The position numbers and the translations under genes are program-made. Below, in pieces: positions 20,221 through 63,970 of a DNA stretch of 64,000 nt; positions within the stretch are counted from its first letter, which is position 1; every line of letters starts with the position of its first letter. This stretch comes from Longimicrobiales bacterium (GTDB lineage Bacteria > Gemmatimonadota > Gemmatimonadetes > Longimicrobiales > Gaopeijiaceae), in the NCBI GenBank assembly GCA_965218295.1, contig CBDCKN010000012.1, forward strand, positions 178,871 through 242,870, written 5' to 3'. The notes beneath the pieces were generated by a model, which had not been told where the DNA came from, did not search any database, and saw nothing but the letters and a program-made list of their open reading frames with translations.

Positions 20221-21204
20221 TCACTCCTTTTCTGTTTGTTCTTCATCGTCCTTCCTCCAGACGGGTTCGGTGAGCCAGCGGTTGGCGGCCGCCTCGTAGC
20301 CCTTCACACGGAGCGCTTCCTCGACGAACCGCCGGCCCCCTCGCCGGGTCATGTGGAGGACGAGATGGATCCCGTCGACCACGCCCCGGCAGGTGACCTC
20401 CCAGGGGAGCGCCCCTCCGGCCTGCATGGCGCAGCTCGCCAGGCGCGAGAGCGCCGAGCGGGCGTTGTTCGCGTGGACGGTGGTGAGCGATCCCCCGTGG
20501 CCGGTGTTCAGCGCCTGGAGGAGATCGGCGGCTTCGCCGCCCCTGACCTCGCCGACGACGATGTGGTCGGGCCGGTGGCGGAGCGCGTGCCGCACCAGGT
20601 CACGGATCGACACGGGCGCCTCGGAGCCCACCGCCCCGGCCTCGAACCGCAGGCAGTTGGTCCGGTCGATCCTGAGCTCGAGCGTGTCCTCGATGGCGAC
20701 GATCCGCTCCTCCTCTGGGAGCAGTTCGATCAGGGCGTTCAGCAGTGTGGTCTTCCCCGAGCCGGTGCCTCCGGAGACCAGGATGTTCCGGCGGGAGGCC
20801 AGCACCTTCCGGGCGGCGCGGAACACCGTCTCTGGCATGGCGCCCTGGCCGACGAGGTCGTCGGCTGAGAACGCGCGGCCCCCGAACCGGCGGATCGTCA
20901 TAGCCACGTGGGGGCTCGCGGGCGGCGTGCAGATGGCGACGCGGGAGCCGTCCTCGAGCCGCGCGTCGAGGATGGGCCGTGTGGCCGGATCGAGCCCGAG
21001 CGGCCTGGCGATGTGGATCGCCGCCCGGTGGAGCGCGGCGGCGGTGAGCGCCGGTGCCTCGAGGGGCTCGAGCTGACCGCCGCGCTCGACCCAGACGTTG
21101 CCGGGGCCGTTGATCATCAGCTCGGAGACCTCCGGATCCTCGAGCACGGCCTCGAGGCCCGGCAGGAACGGTCGCAGGTGCGCGATCCCGCTGGCGCGCT
21201 TCAT
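20221..21204 (-). CDS. virB11: VirB11/CpaF-family secretion ATPase
   Basis: DPEVSELMING; SGGTGSGKTT; IEDTLEL; LRHRPDHIVVGEVRG; NTGHGGSLTTVHA; ATG overlaps the virD4 stop. Confidence 0.88.
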   Translation of the reverse strand: MKRASGIAHLRPFLPGLEAVLEDPEVSELMINGPGNVWVERGGQLEPLEAPALTAAALHRAAIHIARPLGLDPATRPILDARLEDGSRVAICTPPASPHVAMTIRRFGGRAFSADDLVGQGAMPETVFRAARKVLASRRNILVSGGTGSGKTTLLNALIELLPEEERIVAIEDTLELRIDRTNCLRFEAGAVGSEAPVSIRDLVRHALRHRPDHIVVGEVRGGEAADLLQALNTGHGGSLTTVHANNARSALSRLASCAMQAGGALPWEVTCRGVVDGIHLVLHMTRRGGRRFVEEALRVKGYEAAANRWLTEPVWRKDDEEQTEKE

Positions 21205-22481
21205 AGCCGGCCATCCTCGCGGAGCCGCCAGTAGCCCACGTCCCTCGGCAGGTAGTGGGGCTTCAGGTAGACGCGCCGGGCCGGAAGGGACTTCGTGCCG
21301 TCGTAGGGCAGGCAGATCGCCTGGTAGTTGGCGAGGAGTGTGAAGTCCCTCGGCGTGAACACCGGCTCCCGGGCCTGCCGGAACGACTTGCTCGCGCCGA
21401 TCGTGCCCCGTCCGCCTCCGGCGCGTCCCGAGAGCAGCGAGAACTCCGGCCGGCCCGTGGTCTCGGTGAACGTGTAGGAGGGCTGCGTCTTCATGACGCT
21501 GCCGCACATCTCCGAGGCGATCCTGGCCGAGGACTCGTCGGAGAGCGACAGGAAGATCCGGGTGCGGAGCGTCTGGACCAGCGTGCGCCAGGCCTCCGTG
21601 CCCGACAGCACGGAGCGGAGCGAGGAGATCGACTGCGTGGCCACGATCGGGATGCAGCGGCACTGCCGCGTCAACGCGAACGCCTTCTCGTCGCCAGCGG
21701 GGTCGTCCTGGCCCACGGTGGCGAACGCCTGGTACTCGTCGCAGATGAACACTGCGGGCCGGAGGTAGCGGCCGGGCCGGCGGGCGGCCTCGGCGGGCCG
21801 GCGTAGGAGCGCCTGCATCCAGGCGTTCTTGAGCAGCACGCCGATCGCGCGACCGAGCGCCGGGTTGGCGCCCGCGGGCATGTTGAGGGCGAGGACCCGG
21901 CCCGACTCGATCAGCTCGGCGAGCGGCGGCAGCCGGCGGCGGAGGCCCGGCATGGGCCGGACGGCCTCGGGGTCCTCGTCCGGCGCAGCACTATACATAT
22001 GTATGGATTCGTCCGGGTCCGGAGCCGGCGGACAGAACACGCTCGCGACCTGCGGCTGGTCGAAGAGCGAGAGGAAGACGGAGATGCCCTCGACGATCGA
22101 GGTGCGGAGCTTGGCATCGAGCGCCATCCAGTCATGGAGGTACCACCGCTCGATGGCCTCCACCTGGTCCTTGAGTTCGCTCCCCGCGCCGCTCTCGCCT
22201 TCCTCGGTCTCGAACGGGATCTTGAGCTCGGCGAGCCGATCCCGGAGGACCGGGTCGAGCCGGCACGTCACCGTGTCCTCACCGGAGGTATATATCCAGA
22301 CCCAGTCATTCAGCGCTTCCGGATGGCCGATCATGTCGTCGTGGGAGATGACGACGCGCGCCGGGCACGCCTCAGCCACCAGGTCCTGGGCCTCGCGGAT
22401 TCTCTCGGCGAATAGTTCCGCGTCGATCGTGCAGCGGTAGACGTCCTGCAGCGTGACCCAGCCCCCCGGCAAGAGCCGGTG
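21201..22481 (-). pseudogene. virD4: VirD4/TraD-like coupling protein, 3' segment (interrupted gene)
   Basis: Walker B FICDEYQAF, IVATQSISSL; continues in frame from 45830-45771 across the GCCGGTG core. Confidence 0.85.
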
Positions 22482-22892
22482 CAACCTATCTAAAAGGCTC
22501 GTAAGTCGTTGTGGCTAAAAGCTCATCTGCTCTGGGTATCTGTATTGTGCCCCCAGAGTTGCCCCATAATCGCACCCGCATCCAGCGCTCGCCATCAGCG
22601 TCCATTGCGATCCAGCATAGCGGAGCCATCGTCTCGGCCCCGCGGGTGCCAGCTGGCCGGCGCGACCGCCCCACAGGGCAGCCTAGTAAGAATCATGCTA
22701 TATCATCCTATCGGGTCCGATAATGTATAACCTAGGATGTGGTACCACTCTTGGGGGCAGGTCAGTTCACTGCCGTGGGCCATGAAGAACAACAAGGCAC
22801 TCGACGACAAGGGGCGTCCGACGCCCGCGACGAAGGGACGGAAAAGGAAGAGCTGGGACTTCCGTTCTGCCCCTAATCGCCCCGGCTGGAAG

Positions 22893-25800
22893 CTAAGGGT
22901 CGGCGGTGGGGTCAAAGCCGAGGTTTCTGGCCCAATCGAAAGCTTGCTCCAAAAGCTTCCGCTGCGAAGGCATCAGCTGGTCCCCTGCCTGAATGAGTCG
23001 GGGAAGTGCCTCAAGTTGATCGTAGACCGACCACTCCACTTGGGGTCGCAGGACGATCCAGCGACACAATCGACGAACCAAGACCTCCTCTGGCACTGGT
23101 GCCGGAGGGACGGCAGCAGTTGCGCGCTCAACCTCAACATCGACCTCCCCGGTCGAGGTCGCGAAACCTGCCCGATCCCTCACGACAACGCCTGAGGTCT
23201 CGACCGGGGAAGGAACGAGATCGGGGGACTCCGAGATATCAGGCACCTCGACTTCGACTGCGGGATCCATGAGCGTCTGCATGGCGTCCCGAGTAGGTTG
23301 CCGGGCGAGCCCCTTGAGGACCATATCGATCTCTCTTTCGGGATTGAGAAGCCACCTTCGCCCCGAGACTCGGTGCACGGGCCACCCAGCACGCTCTATT
23401 ATGTCCTGACGTTGGTAATCCTCGGGCCTGAGTTGCCCCAAATCGTCCATCTTCCAATCCCCGTCGCATTCCACCGCTAGCTGGCGCCCGCCGGAGTCCT
23501 CTACGACCAAGTCGATCAGATATCGACCACAAGGAACCTGTGTCGTGACTCGCAGTTCGTGGTCCCGCAGTCTATTGCAAACGGCTTCCTCGAATCGGCT
23601 ATCGAATTGATCGGGCCATTCTCCCTCTACATCCCAAGCTTCTGCTCGATCATGCACTCCTTTCGCGTGTTCCAGGAAGCCTCGGATGGCGCCGTTCGGG
23701 AACTGGTGCACTGGCAACGAAACGAAGCAGATCGCCCTCTCCTTCGCTCTAGTGAATGCGACGTTCAGCCTCTCTTCATACCGTTGAATGGTCGTGATCG
23801 AGCCCGCATGGCTCGAGGGACCTTGTCGAAAGGAGTAGAGGATGATGTGGCGCTCGTCACCCTGAAACCCGTCTGCCGTCGAAGCGACAATCTGGTGCCG
23901 TTTGATCAAGTCTGGGTCTTGGTGGAACTCTCGAGCCAGAAGTAGCTGGATTAACTCCGCTTGATGCCGAAACGGAGAGATAGCACCTATCGTCTTGCCC
24001 CTACCCTCTCCTGATGTGATAAGGCGGCGGATCTCGCTTACCACCGCTGCACATTCCTGAGGGTTAACTTTTCTGTCACGGTCCTCGTCGGCCTGCATGA
24101 GCTCTCGCACTTCGAGGGGGAACCTCGCCCGGTCAGGCACACGACGAGTGAGGATCTGGAGCTGATTGTCGTAGAATCGGTCATTTGACCACCGGATAAT
24201 GGCTGGGTCGCAGCGAAAATGCTCGTCTAGAAACCGGCTCGCATTACTGCAGGCTTCGGCAAGTTCCAGCAGACTCCCCTTGCCGTCCAGAAAATGAGCC
24301 TTGGGGTGTCGGTCGATCTGGTACTCCGCCTGAAGCAACCGTACAGTGTTTCCTGAGAGGAACATGGAGGTCACTGGCTGTAGCTGCTTCTTGTCACCTA
24401 CGACGATCATCTTCCTTGCCCTGAACGCCAAAGGAAGGGCCGTCGCTTGGCTGCACTGGGATGCTTCGTCAACAATCAGATAGTCGAACAGGCCCGCCTT
24501 CGGCGGGAACAGGCGCGCCGCATCATCGATAGTGCAGATCCAACAGGGGAACACTCTCAACACAGCGTCGTAGTCGATCGAGTCTCTCAAGGCTAACAAC
24601 GAGTCGTTGAGACGCTTTCGCGCTAACAGCTTCCTGAGTGTCAGTAGGGGAACGCGGATCGCTGGAAACTGCAGCGCCTTATACGCGGCTAGTTCCCGTT
24701 TCCTCTTGATGATCTCCGAAATCATCCTGCGACGCTTCTCTTGACCCTTACTGAGTGCCTCTGAGATCTCCTCCAGATTGTCCGGATGCACCGACAGACT
24801 GCCTCTAATCAGACCGGAAAGGCGATGGGCTTCCATCGCCTTTTCAGCTTCACGGAGCCAATCAGGAATCTCTCTGCGGTCCTGAATGAGCGATCGGATT
24901 TCTTCGAGTGTATTGGAAAGGTGAGACAGTTCGACCGTTTCCAAGTCAAGCATCCGTCGGTAGTACCCGTAGTTGCGGGTCAACCTCTTAAGCTGTCCGA
25001 GGGCTTCCGACGCTTCTTCCGACAGGACGCCTTCTTGGATTCCGTCCGCCACGGCTGCAACCCGCCCCCGCCAGGGTTCTTGCAGACTTAGCGCACCGAT
25101 TAGGCCACTTGTGACACTCTGGCGGGCAATCCACCGTCGTGCCTCTTTCAGAGCGTCTGCCAGTAAGTCCCGTGAATCTGCGGTAGCAAGGAGGTGAGGA
25201 TTTCCGTCGTCCCCAAACGCACTATTGAAATCCTCCAGCGGTATCGTTTCCAACTGAATGAGCATCTGAACAGCGGTATCCGCCCGCGACGCTACGCGAA
25301 GGACAAGCTCCTTGCCCCTCGGCCGAGTTGACCCAAGGGACTCCAGCGGGACACGGGGGAGAAGGTCGTTGAATTGAATCTCAGCTTCGGTGTAGGATTC
25401 CAACCACAGCAGGGCGTTGTTGATGTCACGGAGATCCGACAGTCGACTCCCCCTTCGCACACCGAAGTCCCACTCTCTCAGGCGACGTCGGGACCGGTAT
25501 ACTTCTGGGCTAAGGAACCACCATAGGAGATTGGAACCGCGTTCGCGTAGTATCTCAGCATCCTTGCGGATCCGACCTGCGCCAGCTTCCAGCGCGTTCC
25601 AGTCGTACTCTGAGCCCCTTAGGGTCGAAGCCTGGAAAAATCTGGTCAGGCTCCGCATACTGGCCAGCCATTTATCGAGTCGCTCTCTCCGTATCGAGGA
25701 GAGGGCCTCAAGCCAATTGCTTAGTGTATCGACCTCCTCGGGACGCTGACCGAGATCTCGGAGGTTTCGTTCGATAGCGGGACCCTCTGAAGCGAGCCAT

Positions 25801-27539
25801 TCCTCCAGCCGCGAGATAACAGCAAGAGGCTGATCTCGGTCTAAAGCGGTCAGGCGCTCCGCGATACTACGACCAGAATCACTGACAGGAGTGTCGAGGG
25901 ACTCCGCACTCTCAATCAGATTTAAGAGAGTCTTGGCAATCCCCGTCTCTCTTACACGGGTCGTCTGAGGGCCATCTGGTCGAAAGACGGCTTCGAACGA
26001 GGGAAGCCCCGAGAGAAGGGGTTGGAACAGGTTCGCCCACTCCCGCAGAAGTCTCGCAGTTTCCTGCGGTTGCTCTTCCACAGGGTCGTCTAGGGGAGAC
26101 ATCTGGTCGTACTCGCGGAGGTCCTCATAGCGAGAGAAGCTCGGGAATTCCTCATGCTCGAGACGTCGGAGTTCCATGAAACGCCGGCTAAGCCGCCGGA
26201 GCTCTCGGTCGTTCTGTAGCTGTGCCGCCTGCCCCCGTTCGATGGACTCCGCAGTGAGGTGGTCCGGAGGACGGTCCTGTATGCCCTCCAGCTGTGTCCG
26301 CAACTTCTGTAACGATTCTTGATCGCCAGACAGCATCGATAGAGCTAGTCCGTCGAATCCGCTGAGCATCTTGCTCAGCACCTCCATCGCCTTTCGCTGG
26401 TGACTCGTCACGAGTACGGAGTGGCCTTCGGTAACCAGGTGGCAAACCAGATTGGCGATCGTTTGGGACTTGCCGGTTCCGGGTGGTCCTTGGACGGTCA
26501 GGACATCGACACGGGTGGCCGTCTGGGCAACTTCACGTTGGGCCCGATTCGATGGAAACGGGAACCACAGCGGGTCTCCGCCGTCTGCAGTATCCTCAAA
26601 CGGGAGGTGTATCGCGTCGAACTCGGGCGCTCCCTCTCGGGGAACATCTCCGACGATTTGGGCGAGGACGCTGTCGCCCCCGGGATTGGACTGTGCCCCG
26701 ATCGCTCTGAGATCGGACAGAAGAAACGCGTAGGAGCGGGGCCCGTTCGCGAGAACCGGCCTCATCGTAATGAGAGCGGGGTTTGGGTCCTTGAGAGAAC
26801 CCAGCTGTTGCAGGAATTCCTTCAGCGAGCAGTCTAATGCGGCGATTTCTTCGCACTGGGCCAGAGGTTCGAAAATCCCTGTGAGCACCTGTATCAGTTC
26901 AGGGATCCTGGCCGGTCCGAAACCATCATCGTAGAGGAGAGGTAGGAGTTTCTCGTTTGCAAGTGAGATGTCATCGGGGTCATCCGCCAACTTGCCCAGG
27001 AGAATCGTGTTCAGGTCAGGGGTACTGTTCCTTCGGCGTAGACGGACTTCACGGCTCCTCGGGTCGTAGTCAATATCCATCTCCCAGACCAACAAAGGCC
27101 CCGTGATGAGTCTCCGGCCCATCCGAGCCCCAATGAGTGGGAACCCCAGCAGCGTTTCCCGGTTGTGAGGATCGTTTCGCTGCTTTCTTGCTATTCGGCG
27201 CAGTGTTGCCGCAGCTTGGGGGTCAGGGCCCTCTAGCTGTTCGCCCTGCCCCGTAGAGTCCTGTTCGTCGCCAGCGGCTTCCTCCTCTTCTAGCCCCGCC
27301 AACTCAAGCTCTGCGTCCTCCGCCTCCGAACTAGAGTTGACCTCGAGTTTCAGGCAGAGCTGCGCCGCTTCAAAGATCTCCTCGTCGCCCTGGGCGAAGC
27401 TCGCCAAGTCCGCTGTGAGGCCATACCGCAGGGCCTTCCGCAGGTCATGAAGGTGTGTAGCTCCGGACTGAGAGCGGAGAAGCGCGTCATAGAACTTCGC
27501 GAGGCGCGGGGTCCAGGCTCGCCAATCGAACTCAGCCAT
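22893..27539 (-). CDS. UPF1-like SF1 helicase fused to C-terminal Vsr/DUF559-like nuclease (1548 aa)
   Basis: QGPPGTGKS; IVDEASQ; VGDKKQL; EHFRC; DGFQGDE; RLNVAFTRAK; then DSRFEE...IDLVV...LAVECDG...RQDIIERAGW. Confidence 0.9.
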   Translation of the reverse strand: MAEFDWRAWTPRLAKFYDALLRSQSGATHLHDLRKALRYGLTADLASFAQGDEEIFEAAQLCLKLEVNSSSEAEDAELELAGLEEEEAAGDEQDSTGQGEQLEGPDPQAAATLRRIARKQRNDPHNRETLLGFPLIGARMGRRLITGPLLVWEMDIDYDPRSREVRLRRRNSTPDLNTILLGKLADDPDDISLANEKLLPLLYDDGFGPARIPELIQVLTGIFEPLAQCEEIAALDCSLKEFLQQLGSLKDPNPALITMRPVLANGPRSYAFLLSDLRAIGAQSNPGGDSVLAQIVGDVPREGAPEFDAIHLPFEDTADGGDPLWFPFPSNRAQREVAQTATRVDVLTVQGPPGTGKSQTIANLVCHLVTEGHSVLVTSHQRKAMEVLSKMLSGFDGLALSMLSGDQESLQKLRTQLEGIQDRPPDHLTAESIERGQAAQLQNDRELRRLSRRFMELRRLEHEEFPSFSRYEDLREYDQMSPLDDPVEEQPQETARLLREWANLFQPLLSGLPSFEAVFRPDGPQTTRVRETGIAKTLLNLIESAESLDTPVSDSGRSIAERLTALDRDQPLAVISRLEEWLASEGPAIERNLRDLGQRPEEVDTLSNWLEALSSIRRERLDKWLASMRSLTRFFQASTLRGSEYDWNALEAGAGRIRKDAEILRERGSNLLWWFLSPEVYRSRRRLREWDFGVRRGSRLSDLRDINNALLWLESYTEAEIQFNDLLPRVPLESLGSTRPRGKELVLRVASRADTAVQMLIQLETIPLEDFNSAFGDDGNPHLLATADSRDLLADALKEARRWIARQSVTSGLIGALSLQEPWRGRVAAVADGIQEGVLSEEASEALGQLKRLTRNYGYYRRMLDLETVELSHLSNTLEEIRSLIQDRREIPDWLREAEKAMEAHRLSGLIRGSLSVHPDNLEEISEALSKGQEKRRRMISEIIKRKRELAAYKALQFPAIRVPLLTLRKLLARKRLNDSLLALRDSIDYDAVLRVFPCWICTIDDAARLFPPKAGLFDYLIVDEASQCSQATALPLAFRARKMIVVGDKKQLQPVTSMFLSGNTVRLLQAEYQIDRHPKAHFLDGKGSLLELAEACSNASRFLDEHFRCDPAIIRWSNDRFYDNQLQILTRRVPDRARFPLEVRELMQADEDRDRKVNPQECAAVVSEIRRLITSGEGRGKTIGAISPFRHQAELIQLLLAREFHQDPDLIKRHQIVASTADGFQGDERHIILYSFRQGPSSHAGSITTIQRYEERLNVAFTRAKERAICFVSLPVHQFPNGAIRGFLEHAKGVHDRAEAWDVEGEWPDQFDSRFEEAVCNRLRDHELRVTTQVPCGRYLIDLVVEDSGGRQLAVECDGDWKMDDLGQLRPEDYQRQDIIERAGWPVHRVSGRRWLLNPEREIDMVLKGLARQPTRDAMQTLMDPAVEVEVPDISESPDLVPSPVETSGVVVRDRAGFATSTGEVDVEVERATAAVPPAPVPEEVLVRRLCRWIVLRPQVEWSVYDQLEALPRLIQAGDQLMPSQRKLLEQAFDWARNLGFDPTADP

Positions 27540-27978
27540 CTGGATTCTCCGGAAGAATCCCCTCCTGTGAGTACCGAAGGACGATCTCTATGCGACGGTC
27601 TCTCGCTAGTGCGAGTGCGGTCGTGTCCGAAGGGTCAGAAAGTGGATGGAACTCTCCCCTTCCGACAGAACTGAGCCTAGCGTTTTGGAGGAGCGATGAC
27701 GACGAGAAGAGACGGACCACTTCAGTCGCCCTTCGAGCGGAGAGTTGCCAGTTGTCCTCGATCCCAGCCTGTTGGCAGACTATTCCGGTGACACCCTGCC
27801 GGTCGGCGTGCCCCTCTACCTGCACTGACTCAAAATAGGATTCCTGGTCGCCAAGGACTGCCCCTAGCACTATGAGGAGTTCACGCCCCGTCGGCCTCAG
27901 GTCGTCACGGCACTCCTCAAAGACCAACTCTCCCGTAACGGAACCTGTCAACGCCAGTGAGACACTCTTGGAAATCAA

Positions 27979-28986
27979 TTAGAGAGCAATCTCCTGTGTA
28001 GTGAGGGATGGGGTGGGAGGATTGATCCAGACGGCCTCCGGGAGTGGTTTAGGCTTCGGCTCACCGGAGACGAAGCGCTCGGGATGAGCGGCCCATGCCT
28101 CACGGAGCACGGCCTTCCTGCAGGCGATGATCCGATCGGCGTGACCGAAGTGGACCTGTTCGGGGGTCAGCATCGAGATGCCGCCATGGCGGTGCTCGGC
28201 ATTATACCAACGGAAGAACGAGCGACAGAAGGTCTTGGCTTGCCCCTGATCCCCGAACCGGCCGGGAAACGAGGGATGGTACTTCAAGGTCTTGAACTGA
28301 GCCTCGGAGAACGGATTGTCATCCGAGACCTGGGGTCGGCCCAACGAGCGGGTCACGCCGAGATCGGCGAGTAGTTGAGCCGTGCATTGGCTCGTCATCG
28401 GAGCCCCTCGATCGGAATGCAGGGTCAGGAGGTGGGGCTGGACGCCATGCTTCAAGCAACTCTGCTGGATCAGCCGGCTGGCCAGGGCAGAGTTCTCCCG
28501 ATCCGCCACCATCCATCCCACGACGTAGCGGCTGAAGATGTCCAGGATCACGTAGAGGTAGAAGTAACTCCACTTCTTCGGCCCCAGCAGCCGGGTGATA
28601 TCCCAGGACCAGACCTGGTTCGGGCCCCTCGCCATCAACTCGGGCTTCTGGTATTTGGGATGACTCCGCTGCGCTCGACGCTCCTGAACCGGCACCTGGG
28701 AAGCCAGAACGCGATACATCGTACGCTCGCTGCACAGGTAGACGTCCTCGTCGAGCAGCGTCGCCACCACCTCGGCTGGGGACCGGTCCACGAACCGCTC
28801 CGAACACAGGGTGTCGAAAATCTTGTCCCGCTCCCTCTCGCTTAAGGCCCGGGCGGGGGTCGGGCGGGGCTGCTGATGCCCGGTCGATGCACTCCGACGA
28901 CGGTAGAACGTGGCTCGCGGCACCCTGAGCGCATCGCACGCGGGCTTCACCCCTACGTGCTTGGCTAGCTCCTGGGTCGCCTTCAT
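27979..28986 (-). CDS. IS3-family OrfB DDE transposase
   Basis: PNQVWSWDIT; LDIFSRYVVGW; HSDRG; DNPFSEAQFKTLK. Confidence 0.92.
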   Translation of the reverse strand: MKATQELAKHVGVKPACDALRVPRATFYRRRSASTGHQQPRPTPARALSERERDKIFDTLCSERFVDRSPAEVVATLLDEDVYLCSERTMYRVLASQVPVQERRAQRSHPKYQKPELMARGPNQVWSWDITRLLGPKKWSYFYLYVILDIFSRYVVGWMVADRENSALASRLIQQSCLKHGVQPHLLTLHSDRGAPMTSQCTAQLLADLGVTRSLGRPQVSDDNPFSEAQFKTLKYHPSFPGRFGDQGQAKTFCRSFFRWYNAEHRHGGISMLTPEQVHFGHADRIIACRKAVLREAWAAHPERFVSGEPKPKPLPEAVWINPPTPSLTTQEIAL

Positions 28987-45830: not shown

Positions 45831-45846
45831 AACCTATCGTGCGATG

Positions 45847-52385: not shown

Positions 52386-52450
52386 GACCGACTCCTCGGG
52401 TGAGGAACGGCGTCTGTCGAACGGCGCGTTCTACGGAAAGCAGCGGTGGT

Positions 52451-55400: not shown

Positions 55401-56482
55401 TCACCCGCATCGATGGCGCGGCATAGGTCGTCGAACGCCGACCAGTAGCGCGCCGCCGATGCTGAGAACACGTCGCCCTGGTCCTTGCGGCGGCCGATGT
55501 CGCCGCGCACCCGGTCCCGGAGCGCGTAGTCGTCGTAGCGGCTGTCGCGTACCGGCAGGAGATCGCGGTCTTCGGCGTAAAGCACGAAGAGAAGCCTGTA
55601 GAGCAAGACCAACGCTGCGTCGCGCACTTCGGGCAACGGGGCTTCGGGATCTGCCTTGGCCAGTGCCCGAACAAAGTCCGGGAAGACTTGCTCGAAGACC
55701 AAGACGGACAGGCTGCCGGCGACCCTTTCTTGATGGAAGCGTCCTTCCTCGATCGCCCGCTCGTGAAACGTTCGCTCGTCCGCCGCGTCGGGAAGGAAGG
55801 CATCCCGCCGGAACACCAGCCAGAACACCCTGAGCCAGTGTCTCCGGACATCGGCCGGGATGGCGTCGTGGCCATCGCCCGGCATCCCGAGAACCGCCGC
55901 CAGATTAAGCTCGAAGAACTGTTCGGCGACCGAGCGCGCGCCCGCGTAGTACAGACGCCAGCGGGCGCCGTTCGTCAGAATGCCCCACCGGAGCTTGCCG
56001 GTGGTCTGGTCGTCGATGCGGCGGAGGTAGCGCAGCATCTGCGTCGAGGGCGCGGACTCCTCGCCCCGCCGCCCGGAGCGACGGTCCAGCGGTCGAAGCC
56101 ACCGTTTCGATTCCACGACCGCGAGGCCGTGCTCGTAGCGCTTCCACTCCTCGGCGAAGCGGTTCGCCCGGTCCTTCGAGGCGCCGTCGGCGAACAGCAA
56201 GCCGTCCGGCACGTCTTCGCGTCCGCGCGCCGAGAGGTTCTGCTGCCTGAGGCTGGCAGTCCAGCCGAGCCGCGCCAACACCGGCCAGATCAGGTCATCC
56301 TCGGTCTGGCTCTCGTTGGGCGACAGAGCCGTCGGGAAGCGGTTGAACAGGCCACGCAACGCGGCCTCGAGGTCTGCGAGTCCCTCGTCGGCCAAGTCCC
56401 GCCAGTCCCGAAGCTCGGCGATCGTTTCTCGAAGGAAGTCCTCGGCGAACAGGCTCCCCTCGAAGGGCCGGACCATCGTCAT
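52451..56482 (-). CDS. Type IIG/IIL fused restriction-modification enzyme (Eco57I-like)
   Basis: PDGLLF...VESK; ILTNGARWRLY; GSYYTP; DPAMGSGHFL; IGNPPW; C-terminal target-recognition region. Confidence 0.9.
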   Translation of the reverse strand: MTMVRPFEGSLFAEDFLRETIAELRDWRDLADEGLADLEAALRGLFNRFPTALSPNESQTEDDLIWPVLARLGWTASLRQQNLSARGREDVPDGLLFADGASKDRANRFAEEWKRYEHGLAVVESKRWLRPLDRRSGRRGEESAPSTQMLRYLRRIDDQTTGKLRWGILTNGARWRLYYAGARSVAEQFFELNLAAVLGMPGDGHDAIPADVRRHWLRVFWLVFRRDAFLPDAADERTFHERAIEEGRFHQERVAGSLSVLVFEQVFPDFVRALAKADPEAPLPEVRDAALVLLYRLLFVLYAEDRDLLPVRDSRYDDYALRDRVRGDIGRRKDQGDVFSASAARYWSAFDDLCRAIDAGDASIGLPPYNGGLFDRDRTPLLSRVRLGDTVMADVIDALSFERNGPRRRYINYRDLGVQQLGSIYERLLEREVVREDGNIVVRPNVFARKDSGSYYTPDDLVDLIVRETVGPLADSRMEAFAAKAEDIPSSQVSEDRRMGRLKRLDPAEMLLELKVCDPAMGSGHFLVNLVDYLADRVIEAMAEAEALVDGYLSPLVERIDGIRNTIIDNAEDRGWTFDPAQLDDRHIVRRMVLKRCVYGVDKNPMAVELTKVSLWLHTFTVGAPLSFLDHHLRCGDSLFGTWVAPAVHRTEETSSLFLREPLERATRAAAPMQIIEGLTDAEIAEAHRSADIFAEISEMTAPLDAFMSLLHAFDWLGLRRREVKAAYLNWLQGTSGNPIDIAQTGLSGSEEADGVLTVALELVASERFLNWQVAFPGVWSEWEATELTGGFDAVIGNPPWDRMKLQQVEWFAARRREIAMAPRAADRKGMIAALEKAGDPLARDFRLASERAAAAARVARTSGDYPLLARGDLNLYSLFVEHAMTLVKPDGMVGLLVPSGIASDWTAAPFFKSVATEDRLKALYDFENKKVFFPDVHASFKFCVFVASPRRLPEAAQCAFYLHAVSGVEDPERCFPLSAADFARVNPNTGTAPIFRSRRDAELTTAIYDRLPVLVDRSSGEEVKAWPVKYSTMFHMTNDSGLFRTRSELEEQEGAWPVGGNRYQSPSGEWVPLYEGKMVQAFDHRAASIVINPKNLHRPAQPKPATLEQHGDPNWLPDPQYWVRASECAWPSKSSWVVGFKEITAPTNVRTFIAALFPAVGFGNKVPVLKPETSERSEWLLAANLNATVFDFVTRQKVQGQTLNLFILEQLPVVPFERYRTVSFGPKTAEEIVREAVLELTYTAHDMARFAREMGHVDEGGEVQPPFRWDAERRLNLRAKLDALYFHLYGVTDRDDIRYVYSTFPIVERDEKAVYGAYRSRDLCLAWTSALAVGHPDAEVDI

Positions 56483-56809
56483 CCGAGACCTCCAAAGCCC
56501 AACAGCCCCGAGTCAGCTTGGTCGAGCAGCGCAATCCTTAGTATTGTCCAATCCTCCTCTGACAGTGATCCGGCCCGTGCATCCAAACTAGCTCCCACCG
56601 CGCTCCAGCGCGCCTCGTCGAAAGCCCACCCGAGCCTGCGAGCGAAGCGTCGCTTTACGCTCGTCGGGAAGCCGACGGAGGTGCCGTCGCCGGAGGCCGA
56701 TTCCGTTCCGGAACCCCGCTGGAAGCCTTGGGAAGTCGCCCCGATTCAGCGAGTTGACACAGCCCGGGCGGGGCTTCTCCGTGTACGGTGTATGGAGACT
56801 CCGCCGACC

Positions 56810-56957
56810 CGAGATTACCGCCGCCGTAGGCCGTCCGGCGCGCTTGCCGGGGAGCTGTCTGGCACCCTTAAGGTGGCTAAGCGAGATTACCGCCGCCGTA
56901 GGCCGTCCGGCGCGCTTGCCGGGGAGCTGTCTGGCACCCTTAAGGTGGCTAAGCCAG
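56810..56957. other. Putative oriT with a 72-bp tandem duplication
   Basis: Units 56810-56881 and 56882-56953; ColE1-type nic CTGG^CTTA on the minus strand (56957-56950), upstream of mobC. Confidence 0.75.
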
Positions 56958-57092
56958 CCTACGCAGTGTTGAACACTGCGGCCTGGCAAGGGGACGCTGC
57001 GCCCCCCTTAGACCCCCGGCTTCGCGCGCCGCTGGCCGAGCAGCGGACGGGCGCGGGAGACCGCCCCCCGGAACCCCGCTCGCGGTGCGCCC

Positions 57093-57431
57093 GTGCCTGA
57101 GCGCCGCACCGTGATGCTCGCCGCGCGCGTTACGCCGGCGGAGCATGCCGCCTGGCGGGAGAAGGCGGCGGCGGCGGGCGTGTCGCCGTCCGAGTTGTTG
57201 CGGCGGGCGATGGCGCAAACGCGAACGTGGACCGCGCCGGCAAGGGCCATCGAGCGCGAACGCACCCGTCAGATCGCCCGCATCGGCAACAACCTGAACC
57301 AGCTTGCGCGCTGGGCGAACTCCCACAAGACGGCAGCCGAAGCCGTCACCGTGATCGCCAACCTCGTGTCGTTCGAGCGGTCGCTGCTCGCCGTGGCCCG
57401 CCCGGATGGAGACGGCGGGGATGCACGTTAA
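57093..57431 (+). CDS. mobC: MobC/MbeC relaxosome accessory protein
   Basis: RHH-like N-terminus; QIARIGNNLNQLARWAN. Confidence 0.9.
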   Translation: MPERRTVMLAARVTPAEHAAWREKAAAAGVSPSELLRRAMAQTRTWTAPARAIERERTRQIARIGNNLNQLARWANSHKTAAEAVTVIANLVSFERSLLAVARPDGDGGDAR

Positions 57432-58863
57432 GGTCCTCCCGCGCGGCAAGGGCTCGGCCCGGGCGGCGGTCGACTATCTCGTCGGCGAGCGCGACGCCGA
57501 GGGGCACAGGCGCGAGGGCGTCGAAGTGCTCCGCGGAAACCCCGACATGGTGGCCGCCGTCGCCGACTCGCTCGAGTTCGAGCGCAGGTACACGTCCGTC
57601 GTGATCGCGTGGGCGCCCGACGACCGGCCGACCGACGAGCAGATCGAAGCCGTCCTTGACGAGTTCGAGAAGACTGCCTGGGCCGGACTGGAGCCGGACC
57701 GCTACGCGTGGACGGCGGTTCTGCACCGCGAGCGCGGCGGCGGCGTCCACGCGCACGTGCTGGCCGCGCAGTGCGATCTCGAGACGGGCCGGAGCCTGAA
57801 CATCGCGCCGCCCGGCTGGCAGAGGACCTTCGACCCTCTACGCGACGCGTTCAACCACGAGCACGGCTGGAGCCGCCCGGACGACCCGGCGCGGGCCAGG
57901 GCGCAGCAGCCGGGCCACCGCGCCTACATCGAGGCGGCGAAGCTGCGGGCCGGGCTCGAACACGAGGCCGACCCCCGCAACCTGATCCGCGACTACCTGG
58001 TGCACCGCGTCGAGCACGGCGCGGTGCGAAGCCGCGCCGACGTGATCTCCGCCCTGGAGGATGTGGGCCTCGACGTGCCGCGCCAGGGCAAGGACTACAT
58101 CACCGCCCGCGATCCGGACAGCGGAAAGCGGTGGCGGCTGAGAGGAGCGCTGTATGAGCACGACTTCCACCCAGAACGACTTGACCTCCCGGCTGCGGAG
58201 CCGGCTGGAGACCGACCGGAAGCGGATCGAGGAGACGGCCGCGCGCGAGCTCAAGCGGCTTGGAGAGAGCTTGAGCGCCGTCAGAAGCGACGCGCTGCGT
58301 TCCATCGAAGCCGATACGGTGGAGGCGACCGGGCGGATGCGCGCGATGCTGCTGAGGGCTTGGCTCCGGCCCTTGGTGGTCGGCCTGAGCCTTTTTCTCG
58401 GGTTCAGCGGCGGGAGTTGGGTGACGATGCACTGGTTGTCGAGGAGCATCGAAGTCCGGATCGAGGCACTGGCGACGCTGAACCGGCAGGTCGAGCAGGC
58501 ACGCGGGACGCTGGCCGAGATCGAGGGGGATCGGTTCGTGGTGCTGCCGTTCGGCACACTGGACAATCCGCCCTGGACCGTGCGCGGTCGGCCTGCCGTG
58601 AAGCTATCGAGACAGTGAGGGAACTGTATGACCGACTTGGAACGGCGGCTGACGGCGGCCTTGGAGAGGTTGTCCGCGCAGTACGAGATGGAACAGCAGC
58701 GGCAATCAGAGCAGGTCGAAGCCTTGCAGCGGCAGGTCGAGCGGCTGACCGGGCAGGTGACACGCTTGACCGAATACTACGGGACGTTCGGCGCAGCGTC
58801 GCGCGGCCGCTGGAGGTGACGCGGCGGCGCGGGCCAGAGCGGGACCATGGTCCCAGCCGGTGA
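57421..58863 (+). CDS. mobA: MbeA-like (MOBP) relaxase
   Basis: GKGSARAAVDYL; RYTSVVIAW; HRE...HAH triad; GWSRPDDP; start refined to ATG at 57421. Confidence 0.88.
   Translation: MHVKVLPRGKGSARAAVDYLVGERDAEGHRREGVEVLRGNPDMVAAVADSLEFERRYTSVVIAWAPDDRPTDEQIEAVLDEFEKTAWAGLEPDRYAWTAVLHRERGGGVHAHVLAAQCDLETGRSLNIAPPGWQRTFDPLRDAFNHEHGWSRPDDPARARAQQPGHRAYIEAAKLRAGLEHEADPRNLIRDYLVHRVEHGAVRSRADVISALEDVGLDVPRQGKDYITARDPDSGKRWRLRGALYEHDFHPERLDLPAAEPAGDRPEADRGDGRARAQAAWRELERRQKRRAAFHRSRYGGGDRADARDAAEGLAPALGGRPEPFSRVQRRELGDDALVVEEHRSPDRGTGDAEPAGRAGTRDAGRDRGGSVRGAAVRHTGQSALDRARSACREAIETVRELYDRLGTAADGGLGEVVRAVRDGTAAAIRAGRSLAAAGRAADRAGDTLDRILRDVRRSVARPLEVTRRRGPERDHGPSR
58154..58618 (+). CDS. MbeB-like protein nested in the relaxase gene
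   Basis: AGGAG RBS; ELKRLGESL; TM segment; ColE1-like nesting. Confidence 0.7.
   Translation: MSTTSTQNDLTSRLRSRLETDRKRIEETAARELKRLGESLSAVRSDALRSIEADTVEATGRMRAMLLRAWLRPLVVGLSLFLGFSGGSWVTMHWLSRSIEVRIEALATLNRQVEQARGTLAEIEGDRFVVLPFGTLDNPPWTVRGRPAVKLSRQ
58628..58819 (+). CDS. MbeD/MobD-like protein nested in the relaxase gene
   Basis: MTDLERRLTAALERL...QVTRL coiled coil; GAGGGA RBS. Confidence 0.75.
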   Translation: MTDLERRLTAALERLSAQYEMEQQRQSEQVEALQRQVERLTGQVTRLTEYYGTFGAASRGRWR

Positions 58864-58963
58864 TCGGCTCCGTCAGTGGAAGCGACGAGCGGACAGACAG
58901 TGACATTACGGCGGGTGGTTCTGCTGAACTCCCGAATGAACACACCGGTCCCGCTCGACGGTT

Positions 58964-59452
58964 TCATGCGCTCGCCATCGGTTGGAGGCTGTCGAGGAAA
59001 GCCCACGCGATGCACTGCTCAACGTCCCCCAGCCATTCCATAGCCTCCGGATGGACGGCCAGCGCCGGTAGCAAGGCCGCAATCACCCACGGGCCGTCCG
59101 GAGGGTTGCGGAGGTCGCCGGGGTCGCATCCGTCGATGAACCAAGGGGCCGTCGCCACGGTCTCGCGCCATGCACGCTGCGGGCCAGCGCCACCGCCTTC
59201 CGCCACCGCCAGCACCGCCACGGGCAGCCCGTCCGGGGCAACGATGCGCGCCTGCAGGACGCGCGGGCCGTGTGGATGCGCGAGCACCTCCAGCCGCCAC
59301 GGATCGTCCGGACCCCGCAATGGCGCGGGGGTTGCGAACGCACCCGCCGCCGCGATTAGCCGTCCGTACGCGCGCGTCACGTGGTCGACCACCTCGGAGC
59401 GATCCGAATGGCGGTAGTGCCCCGTGTTCGCGGTCCAGTGTTCGAGCCTCAC
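58964..59452 (-). CDS. Hypothetical protein
   Basis: 162-aa ORF with protein-like composition. Confidence 0.5.
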   Translation of the reverse strand: MRLEHWTANTGHYRHSDRSEVVDHVTRAYGRLIAAAGAFATPAPLRGPDDPWRLEVLAHPHGPRVLQARIVAPDGLPVAVLAVAEGGGAGPQRAWRETVATAPWFIDGCDPGDLRNPPDGPWVIAALLPALAVHPEAMEWLGDVEQCIAWAFLDSLQPMASA

Positions 59453-60069
59453 GGGTCGATTCCCACAGAATAGTTTGAAGGGCCGTCTCCCTGCCTGCCA
59501 TCGTCACGGCCAGTCTGGGTTCGCCCTCCGACCGGAGCACCATCAACAGTACAAGGCATTTCACACACCGCCCGCGAGTGCAAGAGAGTTTTCCACAGCG
59601 GTGTGGGAAATTGATTCAGGGTACCGAGAATCGGCGAAGGTCCTGGCGGATTGGCGTGAGGGCGAACGGTCGTCGGAGGAACTATTTCCCGAGCACGATG
59701 TGGTCCCACTCCGGCATCCCGTTGCGGAGATGCAATTCGGGGGGCCAAAGGGCGCTGATAACGAGCAGCAGTGACCCGGCCCAGGCCCTCGGGGATAGAG
59801 AACGGTCCGGGGCCGCTTCCGGCTTTGCACTAGCGCCGGTCAGATATGCCGCCCCGGCCTTGTTCTGCACAACATGCACTGGGACTGCCTCGACAGCCTA
59901 GGCACCGAGCGGACCGTTCGCCACACCGAGTCTGGGTTGCGCGGTCTCCGCTTTGACCGCAAGCCTTCGAGAGGTGGTCGAGCCAGGGGAGGATCCTGTA
60001 AGGAATCCCGGTTAGATTCGTGCAGGGCCGATGGAGGAACGGCCGGATCATTGACACCTTGGAGAACTG

Positions 60070-61113
60070 ATGGCAGTGCCAGCGGGCGAAGTGCTGATCC
60101 TGGACACCAACACCTTTGTGGCCGAGATCGGCCTGACGTCGAGGCGCGGGTCAGCGCTCAAGCACTACCTTTCGCGTCGGGGGATGCAGTTGGTCGTGCC
60201 GGAAGTCGTCGCTGAAGAGTGCGAACGGCACTTGACCAGGCGTGCAAGGGAGAAGCGAGCGACAGTCGAGGCGAATCTGCAATGGCTCGGACGGTTCTGC
60301 GGTGAAGTGAATGGTTGGCAGGGCCCAAACGATGAGACCATAGAACAACGTGCCAAGGCGCTTGCCCGCGCGGAGCATCTAGGCGCTGTCGTCGTTCGCG
60401 AAACCCTCGGGGTGCGCGGCCGCGCAGATTCGAGGCATCAGGCCGAGCAGCCGCCCAGCCATCGGAAGTCCCAGTTGTCGGATTGCAGAATCTGGGAACA
60501 GTGCATGGAACTGCTGGTCAGGTGCCATGTCGTCTTCGTGTCGGGTGATCACGATTTTCTTGGACTCCGCGAGCCCGACAGGCTGCATCCGGCGTTGCGG
60601 GCCGAGGCTGAAGCAATCGCCGGAGATCGGAGCTGGGCGTTTCACCGGACCATGGGGTCCCTGCTTGGGGAACTCAGGAGTGAGATACAACCGATCCCGG
60701 ATGATGTGGTGTTCGCCTTCATCTACCAGTCGATCGCCTCGGATGTCGAGAAGCTGGCATCGAGGAGTGGCTGCCACCCCAAGCGGGTCGGCCAGGTCAA
60801 GCAGACACTACTGACGACGGATGAGGCCGAGGTCCTTGAGGTCCGTCTGGAGATAGCAGACATCTGGCAGAGCGCTGATGCGGCGAAGACGATGGACTTC
60901 CGCTTTTCAGGCTCGTTTCACTACCGTCTGACGGAGGAAGTGCCCTGCGACCTAATGGCTTCGAGGGTGTCGCTATTAGCACGGCAGTCCGATGGATCGG
61001 TTCGCGCCGTGAAAGGTTCTTATGTGACAGCAAGTGCAGGAGGCATACACCTCGGCGCGCCGCCTATCCGACCGGAGCCCGAAGAATTAGGGACATGGGT
61101 CAGCACAGATTGA
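60070..61113 (+). CDS. PIN-domain protein (DUF4935-like)
   Basis: ILDTN; VPEVVAEE; DCRIWE; FVSGDHDF. Confidence 0.8.
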   Translation: MAVPAGEVLILDTNTFVAEIGLTSRRGSALKHYLSRRGMQLVVPEVVAEECERHLTRRAREKRATVEANLQWLGRFCGEVNGWQGPNDETIEQRAKALARAEHLGAVVVRETLGVRGRADSRHQAEQPPSHRKSQLSDCRIWEQCMELLVRCHVVFVSGDHDFLGLREPDRLHPALRAEAEAIAGDRSWAFHRTMGSLLGELRSEIQPIPDDVVFAFIYQSIASDVEKLASRSGCHPKRVGQVKQTLLTTDEAEVLEVRLEIADIWQSADAAKTMDFRFSGSFHYRLTEEVPCDLMASRVSLLARQSDGSVRAVKGSYVTASAGGIHLGAPPIRPEPEELGTWVSTD

Positions 61114-61428
61114 GTTGCTGTGAATCGTAGTAGCCGCGAGCGGAACAGCTAGTATGCGCCCGACGGCTCGGCGCGCGTCCCCCTCCCAGCTTCCTTCCCA
61201 GTGATTGCCGCCAGGGAGGCCTCGGCTCGGGAGCCTGCTTGGTCGCGAACGCAAAGCAGACCGCGGGGGAAGGAGAAGTCCCGCTTCTGCCTGGTACCGC
61301 TGGGGCAGTCGTACCGTGGTGGCGTTCCGGGAGGAACCATCGATACGGTGAAGGGGGGAGGTACCTCCCCCCTTCGGCCCTCCCCATACATCGTGAACCG
61401 TGAACGAAGAAACAAGGACAGCATACCC

Positions 61429-62280
61429 ATGACCGAACGCGACGACTCCACAACTTCCGTCGAGGAATACCTCCAGTATATGTGTGACCATGCAGGAGTC
61501 GGCCTCGAGGAGATCACCGACCGAGACATCGGCGAAGGAGTCCTTGAACCGGACTTCCGGTCTCAGTTGTTCGCGATCCGCATCGTCCTGGAACGCAATG
61601 ACGAGGCCGAAGAGAAGGTCTCGGCGGAGATCAAGAAACTCGAGGCCGATATCCGGGAACGCGGTGGCAACTCATGGATGATAGATCATTGGGTCGACAA
61701 GCTGCACAGCTCCACGTTTCTTGATGCTACGCACAGCATGGCGGCTGTTGGCTTGATAGCCCCGCTCATGGAGTCCCTGTTTGATCGGGCTTTCCTCTAC
61801 CTGAAGCATGCCATAGGGGAGTCGTATTCACTGGATAGCGGCCATGAACGTTGGCAACTCGACGATCGATGGAACCCTCGCTACGTGTGGAAGAACGGGC
61901 GTCAATCTCGAGACATCGCCAAAGGAATCGTGCAGCTTGCCCAAGCTATCGATTTGAAGAAGCACCTTCCTGACGATCTCCAGAGAACCTTGTCGGTTCT
62001 CTTTGAGTATCGCAACAAGATGTTCCATTTCGGTCTCGAATGGCCCAACAAGGATCTGAAGGACTTTGCTAACTTGATTAAGTCGAACGGATGGACGGAT
62101 TGCTTCACAAGAGCCGAATCAGATGGGGATCCTTGGATCTTCTATATGTCAAGGGATTTCATCGGGCACTGCCTAGATACCGTGGATGAGGTCATCGAGG
62201 GCGTCGGCGCGCGCGTACGCCTGTCTTGGGCGGACGACACACCCGGCCTCGCCGAAGTCAGTTCTACGCTGCTGTCTTGA
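61429..62280 (+). CDS. HEPN-like protein
   Basis: LMESLF and EYRNKMFH (RxxxxH); start refined to ATG at 61429. Confidence 0.6.
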   Translation: MTERDDSTTSVEEYLQYMCDHAGVGLEEITDRDIGEGVLEPDFRSQLFAIRIVLERNDEAEEKVSAEIKKLEADIRERGGNSWMIDHWVDKLHSSTFLDATHSMAAVGLIAPLMESLFDRAFLYLKHAIGESYSLDSGHERWQLDDRWNPRYVWKNGRQSRDIAKGIVQLAQAIDLKKHLPDDLQRTLSVLFEYRNKMFHFGLEWPNKDLKDFANLIKSNGWTDCFTRAESDGDPWIFYMSRDFIGHCLDTVDEVIEGVGARVRLSWADDTPGLAEVSSTLLS

Positions 62281-62400
62281 CCTCCTTCCTGGCTGAGGGC
62301 TTGCGGGTGCGCCCGGCCACGGAGCAGGGCAGCAGACTGCGTGCGGGCTCACCGCACCGGGGCGAGACTGGGGGGCGGCGACATTGCGCGCCTCGAGGGT

Positions 62401-63630
62401 TCAACGGGTCGATCTGGCCTCCCGGCCTCCGTTCCCACCTGCCACATAGTTCGCCCATTCCTCCATGAGCCGCCGCCGCCGCTCGAACAGGTCCGTGCGC
62501 CTGTAGGCGGCCTCGACCTGGTTGCGAACCATGTGTGCCAGCGCCGCCTCCGCCACCTCGCGCGGGTGGTCGGTCTCCTCGGCGGCCCAGTCCCGGAACG
62601 AAGACCGGAAGCCGTGCGGCACCGCCTTGATCCCGAGCCTCTTGAGCAGTCGGGACATCGCGGTATTGGAGAGCGGGTTTCCGCGCATCGGGAACACGAG
62701 CGGACTACCTCGACCCACCGCCCTCGCCTCCCCGAGGATCTCCAACGCGCGACGAGAGAGGGGGACCCGGTGCTCGCGGTTCGTCTTCGTGCGCGGGGCC
62801 GGAATGGTCCACACCCCATGGTCCACGTCGATCTCCGTCCACGCAGCCCCGCGGACCTCGCCGCCGCGGGTCGCTGTCAGCACCAGGAATTCGAACGCCA
62901 GCTTCACGAGCGGCTTCGAGGTCGAGGCCCGCACCTTTCCGATCGCGGACGCAACCTCGGCGTGCGGCAACGCCCGCATGTGTTGCACGACGTACTTCTG
63001 CGCGCCGAGCGCCGGGCCGATCCGGTCGCAGGGGTTGTCCGGCCGGATCTCCATCGCGACGGCCCATTCCATGACCGCCCGGATGCGCTGGCGGAGCTTC
63101 CGGGCGGTGGTCGCCTTCTGGTGCCAGATCGGAGCCAGAATCCCGATCACGTCGGCGCTCGTCACCTCCGAGACCGGCGTCTCGCCGATTCGGGGGAAGA
63201 CATGGCGCTCCAAACTGCTCAGCCATAGCCGGGCATGGTGGGGGGAGCGCCACCCCGGACTCAGTTGATCCCGGAGCCGCCGCGCAGCCTCGGCGAAGGT
63301 GGGCATCGACTTGGCCCGCCGCTTCTCGGACAGGGGGTCGCCACCCTCGCGGGCCAGCTTCCGGTTCGCGAACGCCTTCTCGCGGGCCTCCTTCAGAGAG
63401 ACCAGAGGGTATCCGCCGAGCCCGAACTCGGTTCGGCGGCCCCGGATCGTCAGGCGCTGAATCCAGCCCCGGCTCCCCGTGGGCCGGACATCGAGATAGA
63501 GGCCGTTCCCGTCGCAGTACCGTCCCGCCCGGCTCACGTTGCGCACGAAGGCCGGCGTGAGCGCGTTGTGCGGATGCTGGCCGCGCGGCTTGCGTTTCGG
63601 AGGTCGTCTCGAGAGCGGCATACCCACCAT
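62401..63630 (-). CDS. int: P4-like tyrosine integrase of island B
   Basis: DGNGLYL arm-binding domain; TATRGGEVR; PHGFRSSFRDW; ALAH; AYRR; start at 63630 or 63621. Confidence 0.95.
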   Translation of the reverse strand: MVGMPLSRRPPKRKPRGQHPHNALTPAFVRNVSRAGRYCDGNGLYLDVRPTGSRGWIQRLTIRGRRTEFGLGGYPLVSLKEAREKAFANRKLAREGGDPLSEKRRAKSMPTFAEAARRLRDQLSPGWRSPHHARLWLSSLERHVFPRIGETPVSEVTSADVIGILAPIWHQKATTARKLRQRIRAVMEWAVAMEIRPDNPCDRIGPALGAQKYVVQHMRALPHAEVASAIGKVRASTSKPLVKLAFEFLVLTATRGGEVRGAAWTEIDVDHGVWTIPAPRTKTNREHRVPLSRRALEILGEARAVGRGSPLVFPMRGNPLSNTAMSRLLKRLGIKAVPHGFRSSFRDWAAEETDHPREVAEAALAHMVRNQVEAAYRRTDLFERRRRLMEEWANYVAGGNGGREARSTR

Positions 63631-63772
63631 TATATCAGCCACAATGTGGCGGATGCAAGGGGACGGCAGAGAACACCCACGGATCGCATCCAACCCTACA
63701 TGTTCATTATAACTCAATGTATTCAAGCCACTTGTGTACGATATGGGACCTGTCTGGATGATCAGGTTATCC

Positions 63773-63970
63773 ATAGGCTTGCTGCCAGAACGGCTCGCGG
63801 CTCTTGCCGAAGAGCTGGTTGATCAGGGATGAGACGCTGTATGCGAGCGAGTAAGTGTCGAGCAGCGGATCGTCGAGCGGGTTCCACTGCCAGGCGCCGT
63901 CGAGGCCGATCTCCAGGTAGTCGTCGGCGCGTCCGGCGTTCTCGAGGATCCTCCGCACGTCGTGGCAGAA
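63773..63970 (-). pseudogene. virD4: virD4 5' segment (partial)
   Basis: FCHDVRRIL...WNPLDDP...GKSREPFWQQAY joins 45830-45771 through the 23-bp repeat. Confidence 0.85.

Follow-up and report, generated by a model that had tools for sequence, protein, structure and literature searches.

Islands with P4-like integrases at reused sites within the coupling-protein gene virD4 of a Gemmatimonadota conjugative element

We analysed a 64,000-bp stretch of DNA (hereafter the window), the right end of contig C12 in the genome of a Longimicrobiales bacterium (G000; 3.57 Mb, 17 contigs, 90.7% complete). In this window virD4, the coupling-protein gene of an ICE (integrative and conjugative element), is interrupted by two complete islands and the margin of a third, at fixed sites that are reused in related genomes. 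The islands are likely satellites embedded in their helper element, with P4-like integrases that have shifted from tRNA targets to the helper's transfer genes, a reading to which we give a probability of roughly two-thirds.

Structure of the interrupted virD4 gene

The virD4 pieces, recombination cores and islands are arranged along the window as follows.

21201..22484, minus strand: virD4 3' piece (aa 253-679), which includes Walker B and TraG-D_C but neither Walker A nor the membrane anchor
22475..22481: copy of the site A core away from the integrase, with arm-like TGGGGCA repeats in tandem close by, inside island A
22482..45777: island A (23,296 bp from core to core; G+C 0.605)
45771..45830, minus strand: virD4 middle piece (aa 237-255), in which the A core occupies 45771-45777, the B repeat 45808-45830 and the unoccupied site F 45786-45794
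45831..63795: island B, 17,965 bp between repeats
63773..63970, minus strand: virD4 piece (aa 178-243), terminating in the 23-bp B repeat (63773-63795)
63962..64000, minus strand: site C core and 29 bp of the far arm of the third island, running to the contig end

An earlier note on this DNA, made from the sequence alone, had described virD4 as split in three by two islands and rejoinable without a frameshift. Rejoining is borne out: aligned separately to the intact reference homologue P0002 (679 aa; a second reference, P0003, was also used), the pieces covering aa 178-243, 237-255 and 253-679 were colinear with it and 94%, 95% and 95% identical, respectively. Codon and phase matched on both sides of each core, and excision at the cores would be in frame. 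The junctions were likewise as the note had described them, an exact 23-bp repeat for island B and a 7-bp core for island A, 30 bp apart and each beside its own integrase. The two 23-bp copies (45808-45830 and 63773-63795) are the only exact ones in the genome. The 7-bp core GCCGGTG (at 22475 and 45771) occurs 44 times in the window and 1,754 times in the genome and is by itself not beyond chance; we accepted it because the protein breakpoint falls there and the same junction arms are found in other genomes. The count of pieces had to be amended, as a third frame break lies at 63962-63971 (core CTTCTGCCAC), 29 bp before the contig end, which makes four pieces of virD4 instead of three. Within a few codons of entering islands A and B the reading frame meets a stop, and the islands therefore do not supply the missing end of the gene.

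The VirD4 domains PF10412 (TrwB_AAD_bind) and PF12696 (TraG-D_C) scored above cut-off, and P0002 carries GAVGSGKT (Walker A) at residue 137 and FICDE (Walker B) at residue 498. The structure model of P0002 was of low confidence (mean predicted local distance difference test score 60, below 50 in the C-terminal 150 aa); its best Foldseek matches (E 3e-5 to 2e-4, template-modelling score 0.26-0.30) were Cag-beta, TrwB and the Legionella coupling complex. Sequence searches of the PDB matched no coupling protein. Three database proteins (P0039, P0067 and P0117) contained both VirD4 and VirB11 domains, as fusions or frameshifts.

The third and fourth islands

The last 29 bp of contig C12 matched, at 27-28 of 29 positions, the arms of islands inserted at the same codon (site C) in genomes G232 and G194. 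On contig C15 of G000, virD4 aa 1-181 (C15:528014-528556) are followed by a third P4-like integrase, C, the two together spanning G000:C15:528014-529920. This 5' piece was 94% identical to P0003 and the window pieces 95%, and we infer that C15 joins C12 at this point. A second 5' half, on C13, was ruled out as partner of the window pieces (75-77% identity, versus 94% for C15); its end falls at site A, next to an integrase that is a 97% twin of A.

On C15 a fourth island (D, 20.4 kb) cuts the virD4 start off from the remainder of the operon; it lies between the candidate transfer origin described below and that start. It encodes an integrase 77% identical to that of island B, a MOB_P relaxase and type I restriction-modification (R-M) genes.

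Other junctions were seen in G000. At virD4 codon 241, within the B repeat, a junction was present both at G000:C3:297374 and, in a second genome, in locus L177, and the gene of L267 joins insertion sequence (IS) IS3 there; a further site, or recombination off target, is suggested. Two integrases 91-92% identical to C, at G000:C13:212215 and 235605, lie in a repA-like gene; their junction has only a few bases in common with site C, and they are candidates for a recent target switch.

Reuse of the insertion sites in relatives

Among the 80 best loci we counted 68 full-length virD4 genes and five loci with an island-type junction, so that the split gene is the minority state. In two genomes of the same genus, splitting was common, with intact virD4 copies alongside. 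The arms in the window were 91-99% identical to those of the closest relatives. Junctions at site A were found at 7 (integrase side) and 6 (far side) distinct places, and those at site C at 6 and 10 places, respectively, G000 included; the A junction was present in 3 of 120 relatives. Sites were also occupied singly, A in G195 (locus L174) and C in G037 (L122) and in L031. For site B, a complete single island was present in G237 (L266), with a 96% identical integrase and the same relaxase and R-M gene, and metagenome locus L195 held a B-type insertion one codon further along. The exact B pattern was matched in 3 of 251 genomes, namely G000 and two with off-target insertions (G088 and G194); G237 was missed by one base.

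Two further sites were recognized. Site E (aa 502-504) cuts the Walker B codons in G195, G232, G139 and G194, as a single insertion in G195 and G194. Site F (aa 248-250; 45786-45794; core GCTGGATCA) is empty in the window, between A and B; in L178 and L270 an ICE-type integrase flanks it, and L188, L261 and L268 show reciprocal ends, the ends not being paired within one element. Sibling ICEs thus appear to insert into each other's virD4 at site F. The ends of about 70 ICE-type integrases indicated varied targets, including several tRNA genes, their own integrase gene and virD4, among others.

Integrase clades and their targets

Integrases A, B, C and D all contained the Arm-DNA-bind_3, Phage_int_M and Phage_integrase domains, with intact frames and catalytic motifs. 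The two in the window have the same orientation as virD4 and begin 150-170 bp from the junction.

44330..45601, minus strand: integrase A, P4-like tyrosine recombinase, 423 aa, R/K/HxxR/H/Y motifs present
62401..63621, minus strand: integrase B, P4-like tyrosine recombinase, 406 aa, catalytic motifs present

The earlier note had two unrelated satellites converging on one short stretch. The short stretch and the low identity of the integrases (A versus B, 32%) stood, and A and B fell on separate deep branches of the tree; both nevertheless belong to one P4-like family. Because A shares only 28-32% identity with B, C, D and E, and these four share 52-77% among themselves (B versus D, 77%), we conclude that two lineages of this family have converged on virD4.

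The note had also proposed checking the insertion sites of the closest integrase homologues, and these proved to recur in virD4 and elsewhere in the backbone. We collected 86 distinct related integrases from G000, the loci of relatives and metagenomes, of which 42 had backbone DNA at the expected distance, and built two trees (quick IQ-TREE runs, with support from the Shimodaira-Hasegawa-like approximate likelihood ratio test only). The 42 mapped integrases carried 14 site labels, with 13 label changes on the tree, the minimum, against a mean of 30.5 after shuffling, a test that near-copies inflate. Support for the site clades was 99 for A (6 rows), 97 for B (3 rows), 89 for C (6 rows) and 100 for E (6 rows). 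The labels cover virB4, trbJ-like, virB8, repA-like, the region upstream of virD4, four sites in virD4, virB11, ardC and a small gene. In G000 itself, 11 of 20 full-length P4-like integrases adjoined backbone DNA, with one further weak match. Integrase A was about 80% identical to the group that targets the trbJ-like gene. A search for shared arm sites was negative with exact 8-mers and positive with 7-mers and with fuzzy matching.

Two more distant relatives lay beside tRNA genes (2 of 25 loci scanned), L279 (46% identical to A) and L211 (57% to B). A tRNA-targeting ancestry of these integrases would fit these two cases, the direction of change being unproven. Phage and plasmid collections yielded distant integrases only, the best being 54% and 58% identical among the matches listed, and no tRNA, tmRNA or Rfam family was detected within the 64-kb window.

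Gene content of the islands

The main features of the two islands, besides their integrases, are listed below.

42631..42941, minus strand (island A): copy of the non-coding region that precedes virD4 in the host, 89% identical to the 312-bp host region, with strong hairpins (z -6.3)
45956-49257 (island B): IS66 element with 8-bp target duplication
52451-56482 (island B): type IIG-like R-M gene
57093-58863 (island B): mobC/relaxase/mbeD set, MOB_P

Island B is, by its predicted gene content (direct repeats, integrase, relaxase and no VirB4), a relaxase-bearing integrative and mobilizable element (IME). Its MbeA-like relaxase scored above the Pfam cut-off and below the NCBIfam cut-off and is flanked by MobC and MbeD. 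The cargo also includes a PIN-domain gene, and none of the host backbone genes was found inside the island. The IS66-family element (3.3 kb, 50-bp terminal inverted repeats) is present as identical copies at 280-3581 and 45956-49257 and in seven copies in G000, with a tandem copy immediately left of the window.

Island A carries a helicase, a ZorA/ZorB-like pair, a PemK/PrlF toxin-antitoxin pair and McrBC. For a relaxase, there was no MOB_P match in island A, only fragments of the host's Replic_Relax-like gene, and for want of such a match we do not class it as an IME with a relaxase of its own. The non-coding copy at 42631..42941 is probably a captured candidate origin of transfer (oriT). The hairpin region from which it derives had 13 full or partial matches in G000, many of them not next to a virD4 start, a pattern that capture of a transfer origin would predict. 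The ZorA/ZorB-like pair (22893-31497) goes with a helicase of 1,548 aa that has an MTES_1575 nuclease domain, its best PADLOC match being PDC-S37, and the zorB gene is interrupted by IS3; the region is possibly an unusual Zorya-like layout.

The host conjugative element

The right part of the host element occupies 17756..21204 on the minus strand and comprises virB11, a 76-aa open reading frame (ORF), ardC, a putative relaxase and a 104-aa gene.

20221-21204, minus strand: virB11
18991-20019, minus strand: ardC
18080-18967, minus strand: Replic_Relax-like putative relaxase, 295 aa
17756-18070, minus strand: 104-aa gene

The 295-aa putative relaxase had no Pfam or NCBIfam match; an Atlas lead pointed to PF13814 (Replic_Relax) at 0.90 (192 of 256 features). 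The remaining backbone lies on C15, with an AlpA-domain gene, virB2, 3, 4, 9 and 10, a trbJ-like gene, virB6, virB8 and a repA-like gene; virD4 belongs between virB8/repA-like and virB11. Backbone frames on C15 and C12 are complete, complementary and without stops, and the mating-pair set is complete (VirB2, 3, 4, 9, 10, 6 and 8 on C15, VirB11 on C12). The AlpA domain is carried by the host's first gene (C15:497990). A xis-integrase module lies within 1.5 kb in 33 of 42 backbone copies; at its usual position after the host backbone here, no ICE-type integrase match was found on C12.

With P0002 as query, matches were obtained in 26 of 50 genomes of the same family and in none of 100 from two other families of the order. 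The closest virD4 relatives came from records titled Longimicrobiales, Gemmatimonadota and Ca. Palauibacter, with some from Acidobacteriota and Gammaproteobacteria. The virD4-carrying relatives of G000 are, we assume, sponge symbionts, and the host bacterium is presumably sponge-dwelling.

Next to the host backbone, a 3,320-aa protein with fn3, SWM and Calx-beta repeats (624-bp units) is encoded at 7185-17147, preceded by a 14-bp tandem array at about 17086-17526. An AlpA-domain gene resembling the host's first gene, at 6391-6921, is apparently the head of another decayed element.

Discussion

How might such islands live in their helper? An island would arrive by conjugation and integrate into a helper gene, an insertion that would guarantee co-residence with the helper and silence the helper's own transfer. 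On induction of the helper, an AlpA-type recombination directionality factor would excise the island and restore the gene, the AlpA family being described, in a passage of PMC10111431, as the directionality factor for P4-type integrases. The excised circle would be ready once the channel works, B by means of its own relaxase and A by means of the host relaxase acting on the captured origin. No excisionase or AlpA was found among 70 small island ORFs, while the host's first gene has an AlpA domain. The presence of three islands in one gene is most likely an accumulation on a grounded host that has lost its own xis-integrase, and any multi-input gate would then be a consequence and not an evolved switch.

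Several observations weigh against this reading. Of the 86 integrases, 44 had no mapped backbone site (none, contig edge or ambiguous) and were omitted from the second tree, and the sample was gathered largely around virD4, which biases towards a clade-site pattern. Integrases of the B clade sit at off-target core copies in G194 and G088, and two C-clade integrases lie in the repA-like gene. The proposed join of C15 to C12 spans a gap in the assembly, and C3 of G000 has a remnant with another site-C far end. Among 13 islands examined, six (five complete C or E islands and the virB11 island) had neither a MOB_P relaxase nor an intergenic copy. The parts played by the oriT and by the directionality factor are our inference. 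We rejected the possibility that the sites mark the best-conserved stretches of virD4, 9-mer conservation lying at the 48th-76th percentile (C, B, F and an E-adjacent motif scored). Finally, of 24 runs listed, none of them recorded as RNA, four were aligned to 44200-64000 at 88% likeness, as contigs of mixed communities; no listed piece spanned the junctions, and excision products would be inseparable from intact paralogues. A joint that skips island B (45830 to 63874, with 20 letters on the short side) was accordingly rejected as a sign of excision, being expected from an intact paralogue.

The islands could instead act mainly to disable the resident element, or the cell could retain them for this effect and for the defence genes they carry; they would move with other helpers and restore the gene only incidentally. 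The mostly defence-like cargo (McrBC, ZorAB-like, R-M and toxin-antitoxin genes), the many unpaired junctions with decay and rearrangement, and the insertion of a sibling ICE-type integrase into virD4 at site F, where no ride on a helper is needed, all point this way. We nevertheless consider it unlikely, as the relaxase set in B and the copy of the host's candidate origin in A fit the use of this helper, and the targets include non-channel genes such as ardC.

The earlier note had gone further and proposed that host conjugation requires both islands to excise, as in an AND gate. A gate of two is not supported: with the third cut and the island upstream there would be at least three inputs, the host is without xis-integrase, and intact paralogues such as those of the same-genus genomes would bypass a gate. 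Nor is the idea new, since two IMEs in one virD4, with restoration, already figure in passages of PMC5704250. As to a second intact virD4, which the note took as fatal to gating, no second coupling-protein C-half was found in the 90.7%-complete assembly of G000; intact copies occur in genomes of the same genus. In extended form, a live host would transfer only when A, B, C and perhaps D have all excised, for instance on a shared AlpA signal. All three virD4 excisions would preserve the reading frame, none of the four integrase frames is broken, every other backbone gene is whole although the genome holds 49 IS3 copies, no other C-half was found, and a mixture of excision states might explain why the contig stops 29 bp into arm C. 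Such a working switch is quite unlikely all the same: three independent excisions should be rare, relatives with many site combinations and intact paralogues resemble random filling, the host lacks xis-integrase at the usual place, and a bypassing virD4 copy may be missing from the incomplete assembly.

A mosaic in which collapsed strains or repeats joined different virD4 copies around unrelated islands is very improbable, despite the metagenome-derived and repeat-rich genome, the contig break at site C, the extra virD4 fragments on C13 and C3 and the lack of an aligned contig across the junctions, because genomes assembled independently, single-contig ones included, show the same junctions flanked by near-identical arms, and the window pieces and the C15 piece have the same best homologues.

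Returning to satellites embedded in a helper, the closest precedents are twofold. Passages of PMC5704250 describe ICEs of the Tn5252 superfamily in which two IMEs in two sites of the VirD4 gene are possible and ICE induction is proposed to excise them. Serine-integrase IMEs in traG/virD4, maff2 and snf2 are exemplified by IME_Sco1050_traG_site1, site2 and Tn6104 (PMC5357655, PMC5704250, in part). The islands described here resemble the Tn5252-type traG IMEs in their site-specific insertion within the virD4 of a host ICE, the disruption of the gene and the presence of more than one island per gene. They differ in having P4-like tyrosine integrases and a VirB-type host in Gemmatimonadota, not serine integrases in Firmicutes, and in number, with three simultaneous virD4 cuts and 14 mapped backbone sites against up to two sites. 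Disruption of genes is tied to serine integrases in a section of PMC5357655, where tyrosine-integrase IMEs are said to target gene ends, except for an oriT-targeting group. That group, the streptococcal IME-oriT (PMC5704250, in part), comprises tyrosine-integrase IMEs in the oriT of Tn916/ICESt3 elements, with Rep-trans relaxases. There too a transfer function of the host ICE is hit, comparable to the position of island D between candidate origin and virD4 start; unlike IME-oriT, the islands here cut coding genes and have a MOB_P relaxase or none.

The second precedent is that of the helper-embedded phage-inducible chromosomal islands (HE-PICIs), for which sections of PMC10111431 report an integrase clade hopping among 14 sites in late genes of the helper prophage, demonstrated excision and one helper with two satellites; the string 'conjugat' is absent from the text of that paper. 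As in HE-PICIs, integrase subclades respect sites in helper genes, the islands are co-oriented with the target gene and off-target insertions occur. HE-PICIs have a lambdoid prophage as helper, late-gene targets, encoded AlpA and primase and a single integrase clade, whereas the present islands have a conjugative helper and two clades 28-32% identical and are known from sequence alone; no AlpA or primase match was found among the scanned ORFs of the islands. The finding works like Tn5252-type IMEs and HE-PICIs and is a member of neither.

A further known class comprises genomic islands with P4/CP4-57-type integrases at tRNA or housekeeping genes. Ours share with them the three-domain integrase, arm repeats at both ends and defence cargo; unlike them, they target the interior of a helper gene and do not supply the missing gene end. 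What is new is that P4-like tyrosine integrases do this to the backbone of a Gemmatimonadota ICE, and for Gemmatimonadota or sponge symbionts we found no report of conjugation genes that hold integrase islands in the literature searched, most subscription journals and supplements lying outside its scope.

A wider picture, which we regard as rather doubtful taken whole, would be a conjugative counterpart of helper-embedded phage satellites in sponge-symbiont Gemmatimonadota. At least two P4-like clades and the ICEs' own integrase lineage would have radiated onto at least 14 backbone sites (four within 80 virD4 codons), all islands would be released by an AlpA-type factor of the helper, and with three or four satellites stacked, transfer would occur only after all had excised and boarded.

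Lodging inside an essential gene of the helper is a recurring satellite strategy, known before from streptococcal IMEs with serine integrases and from phage satellites of enterobacteria, and here extended to P4-like tyrosine integrases on a conjugative element of another phylum. Closely related integrases with different mapped cores (77% identity between B and D, about 80% between A and the trbJ group) form a natural series on target change, and the defined attachment-site pairs make the restoration of the helper's coupling protein by excision testable. For annotators there is a caution: what looks in these genomes like a truncated virD4 'pseudogene' may be an occupied attachment site.

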